Shown piece by piece: positions 53,825 through 55,097 of a stretch of 64,000 bases of DNA. The position numbers and the translations under genes were made by a program. Numbering within the stretch: position 1 is the stretch's first letter; each line of letters opens with the position of its first letter. Origin of the DNA: a virus (lineage: Duplodnaviria > Caudoviricetes); IMG/VR virus record IMGVR_UViG_3300026077_000001. One strand, given 5' to 3'. The notes under the pieces were generated by a model that worked only from the letters and a program-made list of their open reading frames with translations, was not told where the DNA came from and did no database searches.

Positions 53825-53889
53825 CACCTGACTTTTATAAGAAGATGCATAAGTTAAAACCAAAAGGTTCACGCAGATACAAAAAGTAG
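53743..53889 (+). CDS. Small basic hypothetical protein (48 aa)
   Basis: Translated by hand: MRNQFQLHLKFLRQLKQEL...RRYKK. Overlaps the previous ORF by 82 nt. Confidence 0.5.
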   Translation: MRNQFQLHLKFLRQLKQELRREPREPLTPDFYKKMHKLKPKGSRRYKK

Positions 53890-53940
53890 TTTTAGCTACA
53901 AAAGTTGCTAAATAGTTGTGCATATGCTAACATATGCATA

Positions 53941-53976
53941 CGTTCGCCCTTCGGGGTGCAAGTAGGTCACGGAACG
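53941..53976 (+). ncRNA. Glutamine-riboswitch-like aptamer 1 (glnA / Downstream-peptide type)
   Basis: P1 CGTTC/GAACG, P2 GCCC-TTCG-GGGT and GCAAGTA linker. Confidence 0.7.
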
Positions 53977-53979
53977 GAG

Positions 53980-54156
53980 CGTTCATCCTGATGATTCCTA
54001 TTCTATTAGCCACTTCTATATCTTGTTCTGATGCTAATGTTCTTATCGATAAGATAAACACATTTAATGTTGATGAAGAAGTACGTGCTGAAATGATTCA
54101 GGTCGTAAAGGAAGAGGTAGACTGGTGTAATTGGGACGCAAATGTCTGAAGGAACG
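53980..54156 (+). ncRNA. Glutamine-riboswitch-like aptamer 2, split by an ORF in its P2 loop
   Basis: 5' half CGTTCATCCT (53980-53989), 3' half GGGACGCAAATGTCTGAAGGAACG (54133-54156). Confidence 0.6.
53991..54149 (+). CDS. Small protein (52 aa) nested in the riboswitch loop
   Basis: MIPILLATSISCSDAN...WCNWDANV, with SD GGAG upstream. Confidence 0.7.
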   Translation: MIPILLATSISCSDANVLIDKINTFNVDEEVRAEMIQVVKEEVDWCNWDANV

Positions 54157-54189
54157 GGGCTAAAAATCCTACTACTTTGGAGTAAAACA

Positions 54190-54324
54190 ATGGCAAAAGT
54201 CATCTACCGTGGTGTCGAGTACGACACTAAAGAGTACAACGCTAAGGTTCTCGATGAGAATTCAAAGCGTAACAGACACGATCTAATGTATCGTGGACTG
54301 AAGGTTCAAAAAGCATACGCTTAA
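54190..54324 (+). CDS. DUF4278-like peptide
   Basis: Two YRG motifs (VIYRGVEY and LMYRGLKV), SD GGAG. Confidence 0.8.
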   Translation: MAKVIYRGVEYDTKEYNAKVLDENSKRNRHDLMYRGLKVQKAYA

Positions 54325-54362
54325 CCTGTACCACCGACTTAGAACAGTCTATGTCAGTAATC

Positions 54363-54392
54363 AAAGAGATCCCTTGATGGATCTCTTTTTTT
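54363..54392 (+). terminator. Rho-independent terminator
   Basis: AAAGAGATCC-CTTGAT-GGATCTCTTT followed by a T run. Confidence 0.88.
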
Positions 54393-54425
54393 GTGGTAAT
54401 ATATAATCTAAAGATATAAGCACCT

Positions 54426-55097
54426 ATGAAACTATTCCTCGACTGTTCGGATCCTGATCTTATAGGTCACGCACTTGAAACTGGTCTTGTGGATGGTGTT
54501 ACCACTAACCCAACTCTGATGAAGAAGTTGGGACAAGATCCACAAGAAGTTATTAAACGTATTGCAGAGATGTTTCCTTGGGATGCATCCATATCTGCTG
54601 AAGTTGTTGGTCAGAATGCTGACGAGATGCTAGAGATGGCATCCCAGTACATTAGGATCGCACCTAACATTACTATTAAACTACCTTGCTCACGTGAGGG
54701 ATTGATTGCTTGTGGTGATCTAACTGGTGATGATATTTCAACCAATGTTACTCTAGTATTTTCTCCTGCACAAGCAGTTCTTGCTGCTAAGGCAGGTGCT
54801 AGTTACATCTCACCTTTCATAGGAAGGGTTGCAGATCAATACTGGGATGGACTATCTCTTATAAAAGATATCCGTAAAATTTATGATCGTAATGATGTTA
54901 CAACTCAAATCCTTGCTGCAAGTATTAGGAACCCCATTGATGTACCCAATGCCTTTGGAGTGGGTGCTGACGTATGTACTTTACCGTACGACATATTCAA
55001 CAAACTATTTGACCATTGTTTAACTACAGCAGGTCTTGAAGCCTTTGATAAAGATTGGGCACAACTAATGGAAGATTTACTACCTGAAGATGAGTGA
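54426..55097 (+). CDS. talC: Transaldolase TalC (FSA family)
   Basis: DGVTTNPTL, ITIKLP, TNVTLVFS, YISPFIGR and ILAASIR. Confidence 0.97.
   Translation: MKLFLDCSDPDLIGHALETGLVDGVTTNPTLMKKLGQDPQEVIKRIAEMFPWDASISAEVVGQNADEMLEMASQYIRIAPNITIKLPCSREGLIACGDLTGDDISTNVTLVFSPAQAVLAAKAGASYISPFIGRVADQYWDGLSLIKDIRKIYDRNDVTTQILAASIRNPIDVPNAFGVGADVCTLPYDIFNKLFDHCLTTAGLEAFDKDWAQLMEDLLPEDE

Follow-up and report, generated by a model that had tools for sequence, protein, structure and literature searches.

The locus described here is best explained, taken as a whole, as a self-contained cassette by which a T4-like cyanophage reads nitrogen status, an interpretation that we consider probable. In this cassette a putative NtcA-type box and a late promoter would come first, then a 5' hairpin and a glutamine riboswitch made of two interlaced sensors, and finally a DUF4278 (IF17-like) gene with a terminator behind it. 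The riboswitch itself probably consists of two glutamine-sensor cores, one folded inside the other, with four conserved half-sites that pair in a nested fashion and with a whole protein-coding gene in the loop of one of the aptamer stems. All the coordinates below refer to the plus strand of the window (the whole stretch of viral DNA that was analyzed, 64,000 nucleotides long). Judged from sequence comparison, the features found at this locus are far beyond chance.

Part of the cassette was matched by 215 phage records, and its architecture is common to more than 150 unique viral elements. An equivalent layout appears in the phages ACG-2014b, P-TIM40, S-P4, Syn30, P-SSM7, S-SSM7 and P-RSM4 and in more than 200 IMG/VR contigs. 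A scan of genome contigs, swamped by chance matches, contained five genuine elements, all of them on MAG contigs that look like phage. The comparisons that follow were carried out with 159 unique elements parsed from marine viral contigs and cyanomyovirus genomes, 97 of them ORF-bearing and 62 compact (the motif AAGUA was fixed in the search patterns, so that it is obligatory in every parsed element). All the sequence features listed in the original prediction are present in the window where it placed them and are conserved in this set; the covariation and the ORF conservation in other cyanophages that it proposed to look for were both found.

The cassette starts with a putative NtcA-type box (GTA-N8-TAC, 53886-53899), located 23 nt upstream of a TAN3T-type -10 element (TATGCT, 53923-28). 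The same GTAN8TAC pattern was present in 176 of 232 unique regions upstream of homologous cassettes, where 7.7 were expected, mostly 57-62 nt upstream of C1 (the first nucleotide of the aptamer core). Between the box and the -10 element there is a T4-type late-promoter-like TAAATA (53909-53914). This hexamer was seen at 31-34 nt upstream of C1 in about one third of the 232 unique upstream regions (103/232 when counted anywhere) and also at individually inspected phage loci. Immediately 5' of the riboswitch lies a perfect 8-bp hairpin, TGCATATG-CTAA-CATATGCA (53919-53938), which could be a stem-loop at the 5' end of the late transcript or else a palindrome spanning the -10 region. At the equivalent site, 193 of the 232 unique homologues have a stable hairpin (<= -4 kcal/mol), although their sequences differ. 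Metatranscriptome contigs from four studies cover 53932-54294 at 100% identity, with a depth of ca. 27 over this interval vs. 2 just upstream. At the other end, the cassette is closed by an intrinsic terminator (54363-88, or 54363-54395 in full), with a 10-bp stem followed by a T run.

In the nested fold, the outer aptamer (53941-69 with 54143-57) is type-I-like. Its P1/PK is made by the 5' strand CGUUC (53941-53945) and by 54152-56, as indicated by Infernal with compact homologues, by RNAalifold and by linchpin covariation. The same three lines of evidence define the outer 3' strand GGAACGG (G35-G41, 54151-54157), whose last base is the linchpin G. The P2 hairpin (53946-53957) has a G6.U17 pair, a CCC/GGG stem and a UUCG loop. 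It covaries richly in the homologues (UCCC/GGGA, UCUC/GAGA, UCAGAG/CUCUGA, GUAUGA/UCAUAC and others), and the G6/U17 of the window, in place of A6/C17, is also seen in two of them (L046 and L081). In ca. 35 loci, among them P-RSM4, the outer P2 loop holds an ORF too. Then come the linking strand U17-G18-C19 and the E-loop strand AAGUA (53957-53964), with C19 (53959) pairing with the linchpin G at 54157, and the 5' strand of P3, GGUCA (53965-53969). The latter pairs with UGUCU (54143-47) through G.U, G-C, U.U, C-G and A-U, that is, four out of five pairs with one U.U mismatch. The segment comprising the 3' strand of P3 and the GAA strand of the E-loop (54143-54150) holds the stop codon UGA (54147-49) of the nested gene, and [GA]AAGG is retained even in compact, ORF-less elements.

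The inner aptamer (53971-85 with 54130-39) forms the "loop" of P3 and is circularly permuted. It begins with its own 3' strand GGAACGG (G35-G41), supported by inner linchpin covariation, and a 2-nt join AG (53971-53979). This leads directly into the 5' strand CGUUC plus A6 (53980-53985), which pairs with the adjoining GAACG (53972-76) according to RNAalifold on 15 compact homologues and to the logic of the linchpins. The inner P2 is made of UCCUGAU (53986-53992), which includes the A and the U of the start codon of the nested gene, and of AUUGGGA (54130-36), seven base pairs in total. The latter strand continues into the linking strand C17-G18-C19 (CGC, 54137-39), this whole stretch (54130-54139) encoding N-W-D-A, and the inner C19 pairs with G41 at 53977. 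A permuted core of this kind, closed by a 2-nt join beside the linchpin, has no solved structural precedent.

One indication of this topology comes from the covariation of the linchpins. In the nested register the outer linchpin is a standard pair in 159/159 unique elements (101 with C-G, 58 with G-C) and the inner one, ls2:N41(1), is paired in 91% of them. When the same 159 elements are read side by side, the two linchpins are standard in just 62% and 59%. Both would be mismatched side by side in the 48 unique elements of the (G,G,C,C) class and in the 3 of the (C,C,G,G) class. The (C,G,C,G) class, to which the window belongs, makes up 57% of the unique elements and fits both folds. Pairs 1, 2, 4 and 5 of P3 are 97-100% standard across the homologues, with compensatory changes such as AGUCG/CGACU, AUUCG/CGAAU, AAUCG/CGAUU and AGUCA/UGACU. 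With compact homologues, the Infernal alignment to RF01739 spans both units at 39.6-43.6 bits (cut-off 35), and RNAalifold (15 compact homologues) predicted the outer P1 and P2, the inner hairpin and the inner P2. The long-range helices were missing from the single-sequence MFE fold of 53936-54200. Computed energies for the two competing schemes were alike (-13.8 vs. -14.6 kcal/mol), and thermodynamics cannot therefore choose between them.

These similar energies, together with the 57% of unique elements (window included) compatible with both folds and with the fact that the distal halves are transcribed 150-200 nt after their partners, would suit an RNA that exchanges topologies. A side-by-side or partial fold would form during transcription and the nested one later, and the exchange, rather than a simple stabilization by the ligand, would set the output. 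We regard this as rather unlikely; no proper side-by-side linchpin can form in the (G,G,C,C) class or in the (C,C,G,G) class and, because of them, a side-by-side intermediate is no conserved requirement.

A permanent side-by-side arrangement, which was the topology proposed in the original prediction, appears less probable still. Such an arrangement would consist of a complete compact glutamine-II-like unit at 53941-76 (CGTTC-GCCC-TTCG-GGGT-...-GAACG) and of a second one, split by the ORF, that would start with CGTTCATCCT (53980-89) and finish with GGGACGCAAATGTCTGAAGGAACG (54133-56), each unit having its own P1/PK and linchpin. The window sequence by itself is compatible with such a fold, since both of its linchpins are C:G in either reading and the energies do not discriminate. 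Besides, the best Rfam match in the window comes from the compact unit taken alone (RF01704, Glutamine-II, 53938-85, 18.2 bits, E 0.004-0.04, below the gathering threshold of 33), and elements of this type have been counted as tandem doublets in the literature (PMC9481103). Against it stand the two mismatched classes and the lower fraction of paired linchpins among the homologues, as well as the covariation of P3, which runs between the two units. In addition, the E-loop halves AAGUA and GAA sit on different "tandem units", so that no single unit has both strands, and both Infernal and RNAalifold pick the nested fold. The evidence is thus better accommodated by the interlaced arrangement, in which 53941-45 pairs with the GAACG at 54152-56 and the GAACG at 53972-76 pairs with the CGUUC at 53980-84. 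What had been taken for a first aptamer would then be the outer 5' half plus the inner 3' strand.

That the element is a relative of the glutamine riboswitches, as had been proposed, is supported by its natural compact homologues, which score 35.5-43.6 bits against RF01739 (type 1, threshold 35). At the gathering threshold there were no Rfam matches in the whole window, and RF01739 itself aligned only to a local piece (53939-80, 15.1 bits). The outer aptamer measures 217 nt with a 175-nt insert, which is beyond the span of cmscan, and it goes undetected by the RF01739 model because the P3 loop holds a whole aptamer plus a gene. The structural features of RF01739 that were looked for are all present in the window, namely P1 CGUUC/GAACG, the P2 hairpin, the AAGUA/GAA E-loop flanking P3 (three-way junction) and the long-range linchpin, which joins base three of the linking strand to the base that follows GAACG and is paired in 159/159 unique elements in the nested register. 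The H-type pseudoknot typical of RF01704, where the loop of a local P2 hairpin contains GGAACGG, is absent; neither GGAACGG strand sits within a conserved local hairpin, and the strands that flank them pair across the element to make P3. The core nucleotides and the linchpin of the Glutamine-II riboswitch have been defined (Huang 2019, PMC6698751). The pocket nucleotides (C1:G40, G2:C39 with G18, C19:G41 and G35-A38) are invariant or covary correctly, even at synonymous codon sites, and both cores have every nucleotide that touches the ligand in the solved structures of glutamine-I and glutamine-II. From this conservation we infer that both cores bind L-glutamine. It is very improbable that the half-sites have lost glutamine sensing and that the long-range stems just bracket small genes (coupling or limiting their translation, or guiding RNA processing), as might be thought from the sub-threshold Rfam scores of the window and from the start codons found inside the bracketing stems of at least three unrelated-looking ORF families, given the state of the pocket and glutamine-contact nucleotides, their retention at synonymous sites, a DUF4278 association that is the one of validated glutamine riboswitches and the compact homologues scoring above the RF01739 threshold.

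The gene enclosed by the inner P2 (53991-54149, from ATG 53991 to TGA 54147-49) codes for 52 aa ending in W-D-A-N-V and belongs to phrog_504, "T4-like GC 430" (E 3.9e-15). The stem that brackets it, UCCUGAU/AUUGGGA, covaries over 140-210 nt in the 97 unique ORF-bearing elements. Its first four positions retain at least 97% standard pairs, the fourth with four different pair types, and its mean contiguous length is 5.76 bp, vs. 4.10 +/- 0.15 with shuffled partners. The comparative evidence shows this ORF to be a real gene under protein-level selection. Codon-position entropies in 81 unique ORFs fit coding sequence; in the body of the ORF the synonymous sites are free to vary and two Cys are invariant. 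Homologues of the protein form 1,419 clusters. A chance ORF was rejected by the codon statistics, by these homologous clusters and by the GGAG join being limited to ORF-bearing elements. This join (GAG, giving the GGAG SD) occurs in 59/97 ORF-bearing vs. 0/62 compact elements (Fisher 6e-18). AF2 predicts a helical hairpin (mean pLDDT 82) with two conserved Cys, and a Foldseek search against PDB and BFVD returned just uncharacterized cyanophage homologues and generic helical hairpins.

The existence of a whole protein gene in the hairpin loop of an aptamer, a central claim of the original prediction, is thus upheld by stem covariation, codon statistics and phrog_504 membership, and so is the overlap of its signals with the aptamer. 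Its SD (GGAG, 53976-79) is made of G40, G41, A and G of the inner core, with a long spacing of 11 nt to the AUG, which lies in the inner P2, so that both signals are aptamer nucleotides. The last five codons and the stop are at the same time inner P2, linking strand, P3 and E-loop. Only these last codons are frozen by the RNA, the third-position entropy being 0 in those for W, D and A. A constraint by the protein on these terminal codons was rejected, since the outer-loop ORF of P-RSM4 reads this aptamer sequence in another frame. In the searchable literature we have found no description of this architecture, with a gene enclosed by an aptamer stem, for any riboswitch, in keeping with what had been anticipated.

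The DUF4278-type gene expected downstream is also there (54190-54324, 44 aa), starting 33 nt 3' of the outer aptamer and followed by the terminator mentioned above. Its match to PF14105 (23.2 bits, E 9.2e-5) is just below the Pfam gathering cut-off of 25.3, but the YRG...YRG pattern is present, the ORF matches phrog_5049 (E 1.8e-19) and both P-TIM40 and S-SSM5 have homologues of it with a DUF4278 annotation. Comparison with relatives points to an expression platform at 54158-54182, made of an anti-SD (GCUAAA, 54159-64), a conserved UACUACUU motif and an SD (GGAG, 54179-82). The proposal that this SD can be occluded holds clearly for the relatives, where the bases adjoining the linchpin pair with it (CUCUUUA/UAAGGAG, CCUAAA/UUUAGG) and the mean anti-SD/SD duplex is -4.88 kcal/mol within the same locus vs. 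-3.88 across loci (p 1.6e-7). In the window it holds only weakly, with a best duplex of -3.1 kcal/mol. For the UACUACUU motif no partner emerged from a mutual-information scan, and RNAalifold detected no conserved local structure between the outer aptamer and the DUF4278 start.

How such an RNA could work may be sketched as follows. The inner domain would bring the strands of P3 together and only then could the outer core close, so that the two cores would behave as a single, cooperative sensor. When glutamine is high, folding would bury the ribosome binding site of the nested gene, and the outer linchpin would be pulled away from the adjoining anti-SD, turning on DUF4278 translation in the manner demonstrated for the host gifB and Prochlorococcus leaders. 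Host glutamine riboswitches are known to turn on the translation of DUF4278 and gifB (Klahn 2018, PMC6212724). At low glutamine the cores would open and the nested gene would be translated, and ribosomes travelling as far as its stop, within the E-loop, would prevent both cores from folding and leave DUF4278 off. The two-stage circuit envisaged originally, with ribosomes unfolding an aptamer, is plausible. More tentatively, a single mRNA might be a glutamine-operated toggle between two proteins, with ribosome traffic as a second input and closed cores releasing the DUF4278 SD. If this were true, the phage would, with its NtcA-type promoter, read 2-oxoglutarate at transcription and glutamine at translation, and up to three products could be sorted in phages with ORFs in both loops.

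Riboswitch aptamers are usually seen as compact, non-coding domains that precede their target genes. In this element the fold that binds the ligand would have to assemble across a translated gene, with translation and metabolite sensing competing for the same nucleotides. Surveys of phages have provided very few riboswitches (McCown 2017 and Buchholz 2022, two each), a near-absence that would be explained by split elements escaping covariance-model scans. The cassette also suggests that phages control nitrogen assimilation in the host by means of IF17-like peptides and of the large family of small two-Cys proteins (1,419 clusters) to which the nested product belongs.

Among the known systems, RF01739 (the Synechocystis gifB leader, Klahn 2018; structure in Ren 2015) has, as the phage element, P1 CGUUC/GAACG followed by the P2 hairpin, a linking strand forming a long-range linchpin and an AAGUA/GAA E-loop stacked on P3. 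It also precedes a DUF4278/IF17-type gene, and its anti-SD starts at or beside the linchpin. The phage element differs in its P3 loop, which is a second aptamer plus a gene (ca. 175 nt) instead of a short cap, and the linchpin of the window is C:G, as in type 2, while in other phage clades it is G:C; the two linchpin states may trace to few evolutionary events. With RF01704 (Huang 2019) it shares the CGUUCA-hairpin-CGC ... GGAACGG core, the C19:G41 linchpin, the same pocket nucleotides and the association with short YRG/DUF4278 peptides of marine picocyanobacteria. Unlike RF01704, it lacks a local P2 hairpin around the GGAACGG strand, and its inner core is permuted, with the 3' strand first and a 2-3 nt join to the 5' strand.

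The 157 doublets and 4 triplets of glutamine riboswitches reported by Sherlock et al. 2022 (PMC9481103) resemble the phage element in having two homologous ligand-binding cores per leader, from which a steeper, cooperative response is expected. However, the doublets were described as serial units with separate platforms ("pseudo-cooperative"), without mention of genes in the loops, whereas the phage units would be interlaced and share helix P3, with a gene in the loop and with the linking strand of each tandem repeat unit pairing with the 3' strand of the other. What have been called "tandem" glutamine riboswitches thus appear here as one interlaced, partly circularly permuted double sensor and not as two serial units. 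The physical coupling of two domains is a feature in common with the tandem glycine riboswitch. Structured RNAs with ORFs in their peripheral loops do exist, namely the group I and II introns (with homing-endonuclease or maturase ORFs) and tmRNA. They are like the phage element in that a coding sequence is tolerated in a hairpin loop and the fold must form across the ORF, but introns are ribozymes and tmRNA a rescue RNA, whereas the phage element is a putative metabolite sensor. In the latter, the SD, the start, the last codons and the stop of the nested gene are nucleotides of the aptamer core, and translation and sensing would therefore be mutually exclusive by construction.

The window comes from a T4-like cyanomyovirus. 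On its plus strand the cassette opens with a late-promoter-like TAAATA (53909-14) and a perfect hairpin of 8 bp (53919-38), followed by the unit CGUUC-GCCC-UUCG-GGGU-GCAAGUAGGUCAC-GGAACG (53941-76), by CGUUCAUCCU three bases later (53980-89) and by GGGACGCAAAUGUCUGAAGGAACGGGG (54133-59). A frame of 52 codons runs from ATG 53991 to W-D-A-N-V-TGA, with the stop at 54147-49, and after it come a Shine-Dalgarno (SD) sequence GGAG (54179-82), a DUF4278-type ORF of 44 codons (54190-54324) and a terminator (54363-88). Every feature listed in the original prediction was found in place. The 44-aa product matched DUF4278 with an E value of 9.2e-5 and 23.2 bits, slightly under the cut-off of 25.3, and also phrog_5049. 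Just 5' of its SD lies a conserved motif, (C)UACUACUU (54170-54178), for which a search among the homologues found no covarying partner. The upstream neighbours are two adjacent genes of the 2OG-Fe(II) oxygenase family (PF13759 and PF13640, 52596-53824), a place taken in most relatives by nrdB and small ORFs, and the next gene on the 3' side (54426-55097) is annotated as talC in relatives.

Along its whole length the 52-aa product matched phrog_504 (E 3.9e-15), and no Pfam family matched it. In the body of 81 unique nested ORFs, variability peaks at the third codon position and is lowest at the second. Two cysteines are invariant, and third-position entropy falls to zero in the 3'-end W, D and A codons, despite the synonymous options available for D and A. 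This pattern marks the nested ORF as a true coding sequence, with an overlapping RNA element holding its final codons constant. Between the two units, a G-A-G join creates a GGAG SD in 59 of the 97 ORF-bearing elements and in none of the 62 compact ones (Fisher 6e-18). The protein was modelled as a two-helix hairpin (AlphaFold2, 55-sequence alignment, mean pLDDT 82), and fold searches with this model returned only uncharacterised cyanophage proteins.

This architecture is widespread in cyanomyoviruses. A blastn search against phage genomes gave 215 records matching part of the cassette, all of them cyanophages or marine viruses, tblastn located the nested protein in 65 cyanophage genomes, and a profile search retrieved 1,419 homologous protein clusters, all unnamed. 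ACG-2014b, P-TIM40, S-P4, Syn30, P-SSM7 and S-SSM7 share one order: the compact unit comes first, then CGUUCAUCC(N)-AUG, the ORF itself (53-60 codons), GGGACGCA-N-GAC-UGA/UAA-AGGAACGG and the DUF4278-type gene. Three pattern scans of IMG/VR added more than 250 loci, and the parsed set comprised 159 unique elements, 97 of them with an ORF-sized insert; both covariation and conservation of the ORF, which the original prediction had proposed to look for in other cyanophages, are present in it. The cassette also appeared on five contigs of metagenome-assembled genomes (L153, L160, L202, L222 and L225 in genome_contigs) labelled Synechococcus (a 194-kb contig, the size of a phage genome) and Rhodospirillaceae, which are probably phage contigs binned into MAGs. 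One viral contig (L016) carries, besides a compact nested glutamine element, a PhotoRC-II RNA (RF01717, 57.1 bits, 1021-1116).

In the 97 ORF-bearing elements the strand 3' of CGUUCA pairs with the strand 5' of CGC, 140-210 nt away. Pairs 1-4 of this gene-spanning stem are standard in 97-100%, with pair 3 alternating between C-G (73) and U-A (24) and pair 4 among C-G (45), A-U (23), U-A (18) and U.G (8). The contiguous stem averages 5.76 bp, whereas 2000 shuffles of the partner strands gave 4.10 +/- 0.15 and never exceeded 4.64; the window has a 7-bp version, UCCUGAU / AUUGGGA. The A of the start codon is usually inside the stem, and often the whole codon is. In about 25 loci the two halves are linked by a loop of only 10-26 nt, that is, natural loop-deleted versions.

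How the two units combine is a separate matter. They could be two aptamers standing side by side, each with its own linking strand and linchpin, or a single outer aptamer enclosing an inner one. Both linchpins of the window are C:G, so that the window alone fits either topology, and it is the family that decides. The nested fold is favoured on five grounds. Infernal recognised in compact homologues a single RF01739 aptamer spanning both units (43.6 bits in L016, 40.3 in L045 and 39.6 in L032), in which the first CGUUC pairs with the last GAACG as P1, the first hairpin is P2, unit one contributes AAGUA and unit two GAAGG, and P3 is AGU.../...ACU, with the intervening sequence as an insert. The E-loop strands are always on different units, AAGUA after the first CGC and [GA]AA before the last GGAACG, also in elements devoid of ORF. 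The bases 3' of AAGUA and 5' of [GA]AAGG, forming P3, are complementary and covary (AGUCG/CGACU, AUUCG/CGAAU, AAUCG/CGAUU, AGUCA/UGACU, GGACGG/CCGCCC, AGCCAACU/AGUUUGCU), with pairs 1, 2, 4 and 5 standard in 97-100%. Among the 159 elements, pair 3 (53967/54145 in the window, U.U) is U-A in 70 and a mismatched C.A in 71, perhaps as a conserved non-canonical pairing. An independent RNAalifold prediction from 15 compact elements gave the outer P1 and P2, a short hairpin (GAACG-NNN-CGUUC) and the P2 of the inner core.

The decisive test among the five is the covariation of the linchpin, which in solved structures is C19:G41 in glutamine-II and an equivalent G:C in glutamine-I (Huang 2019, PMC6698751). 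In the nested fold, the outer linchpin joins base 3 of linking strand 1 to the nucleotide just 3' of the second GAACG and is paired in 159/159 elements (C-G 101, G-C 58); the inner one joins base 3 of linking strand 2 to the nucleotide just 3' of the first GAACG and is paired in 91%, a figure that takes in the reciprocal (C,C,G,G) class. The side-by-side linchpins are paired in only 62% and 59% of the same 159 elements, and both are mismatched in 48 (G,G,C,C) plus 3 (C,C,G,G). The original prediction of a gene in an aptamer loop was right, as codon variability, the phrog_504 match and the covarying stem all indicate, and its side-by-side topology was wrong. On this comparative evidence, the outer aptamer forms a type-I-like junction of three helices, and its P3 ends in a second core that is circularly permuted, with the strand order 3' pseudoknot strand, join of 2-3 nt, 5' strand, P2 and linking strand. 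The inner P2 loop houses the nested gene and, in other phages, the outer P2 loop houses a second one.

In the nested fold, the outer core of the window comprises C1-C5 (53941-45), G6 (53946), P2 (CCC with GGG, 53947-49 / 53954-56), U17-G18-C19 (53957-59), the E-loop strands AAGUA (53960-64) and GAA (54148-50), the two strands of P3 (53965-69 / 54143-47) and G35-G41 (54151-57). The inner core comprises G35-G41 (53971-77), the join AG (53978-79), C1-C5 (53980-84), A6 (53985), P2 (53986-92 / 54130-36) and C17-G18-C19 (54137-39). Glutamine-pocket nucleotides are complete in both (C1:G40, G2:C39 with G18, U3/U4:A38/A37 with G35, C5:G36 and the linchpin); the outer core has G6/U17 in place of A6/C17, a variant also seen in L046 and L081.

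Genes in the outer loop are exemplified by P-RSM4, where the first unit is split too. Here CGUUCAUCCA-AUG starts a 68-codon ORF (phrog_6471; 308-535 of the locus) that terminates in the conserved AAGUAA, read in a different frame, and UCCA/UGGA replaces UCCC/GGGA in the stem. About 35 IMG/VR loci have a further ORF of 61-75 codons in this hairpin. The outer-loop genes belong to phrog_6471 and related two-Cys families, with the ATG 10 nt after C1, no SD and the stop codon in or near AAGUAA. One ORF type was found in the outer loop of L013 and L123 and in the inner loop of L055 and L127. Another variant is an insert of about 30 nt after the outer GGAACGG (GGAUC, a hairpin with a GAAA loop, AGAAGG) that resembles a third E-loop/P3-like piece and appears in Syn30 (L004, about 815-860), L012, L040, L048, L059, L075, L094, L100, L104, L107, L108, L115 and L120.

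In relatives, the stretch directly 3' of the outer linchpin is complementary to the DUF4278 SD: the G:C-linchpin clade matches C41-UCUUUA to UAAGGAG, and many C:G-linchpin elements match CCUAAA to UUUAGG. Same-locus duplexes average -4.88 versus -3.88 kcal/mol for cross-locus ones (p 1.6e-7, inflated by relatedness); that of the window is weak (-3.1 kcal/mol). Upstream, TAAATA and the covarying hairpin are conserved among 232 unique homologous leaders, 176 of which carry GTA-N8-TAC versus 7.7 expected, mostly 57-62 nt upstream of C1. The window has such a candidate NtcA-type box, GTAGTTTTAGCTAC (53886-99), and 23 nt after it a TAN3T-type -10 element, TATGCT (53923-28), a spacing that corresponds to that of NtcA-activated promoters, with putative binding. 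Marine metatranscriptome contigs from four studies cover 53932-54294 with zero differences (100% identity), at a k-mer depth of about 27 versus 2 just upstream, and one contig of 360 nt starts at 53932. This fits a transcript starting near the riboswitch and running through both genes, with the limits that contigs do not prove ends and that DNA carry-over is possible. With contigs of relatives, the match is confined to the two conserved half-site blocks, and the ORF between them differs.

Sequence comparison bears out the nested fold, the gene in its loop and the use of core nucleotides as translation signals of that gene. By analogy with validated relatives, both cores would bind glutamine, which would turn on translation of DUF4278. 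From the anatomy, P3 and hence the outer core would form only once the inner core has closed, which would make a cooperative two-ligand sensor. The closed inner core would bury the SD (G40-G41-A-G) and AUG of the nested gene. Ribosomes on this gene would run through P2 and the linking strand of the inner core, then through P3, before reaching a stop codon in the E-loop, thus covering the outer GGAACGG and blocking the folding of both cores. The simplest outcome, which we put forward tentatively as somewhat less than an even bet, would be reciprocal expression, low glutamine giving the nested protein and high glutamine the IF17-like peptide.

The element is clearly homologous to glutamine riboswitches and would work like them. 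The outer core has the structure that defines type I, and the inner one departs from the glutamine-II definition by its lack of a local P2 and its permuted strand order. In the window neither core reaches Rfam score thresholds: the whole stretch gave zero matches at gathering thresholds, and in E-value mode only the compact stretch 53938-85 matched, with 18.2 bits to glutamine-II (cut-off 33) and 15.1 to glutamine-I (cut-off 35), so that the element cannot be classed by Rfam score. The outer P3 insert, of about 175 nt in the window, causes cmscan to miss it, and such inserts probably also account for the low phage counts in published surveys, only two glutamine riboswitches (PMC5473149, PMC9004378). 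The literature searched, outside which Ames & Breaker 2011 falls, did not describe units that are interlaced or permuted, or loops that contain genes. In the gifB model of Klahn et al. (PMC6212724), the linchpin base and its neighbours are postulated to block the ribosome-binding site until glutamine binds, the same arrangement as in the phage relatives; host gifB is NtcA-repressed, whereas the spacing of the phage box looks activator-type. The architecture is a new form within a known riboswitch class, and its regulatory logic is putative.
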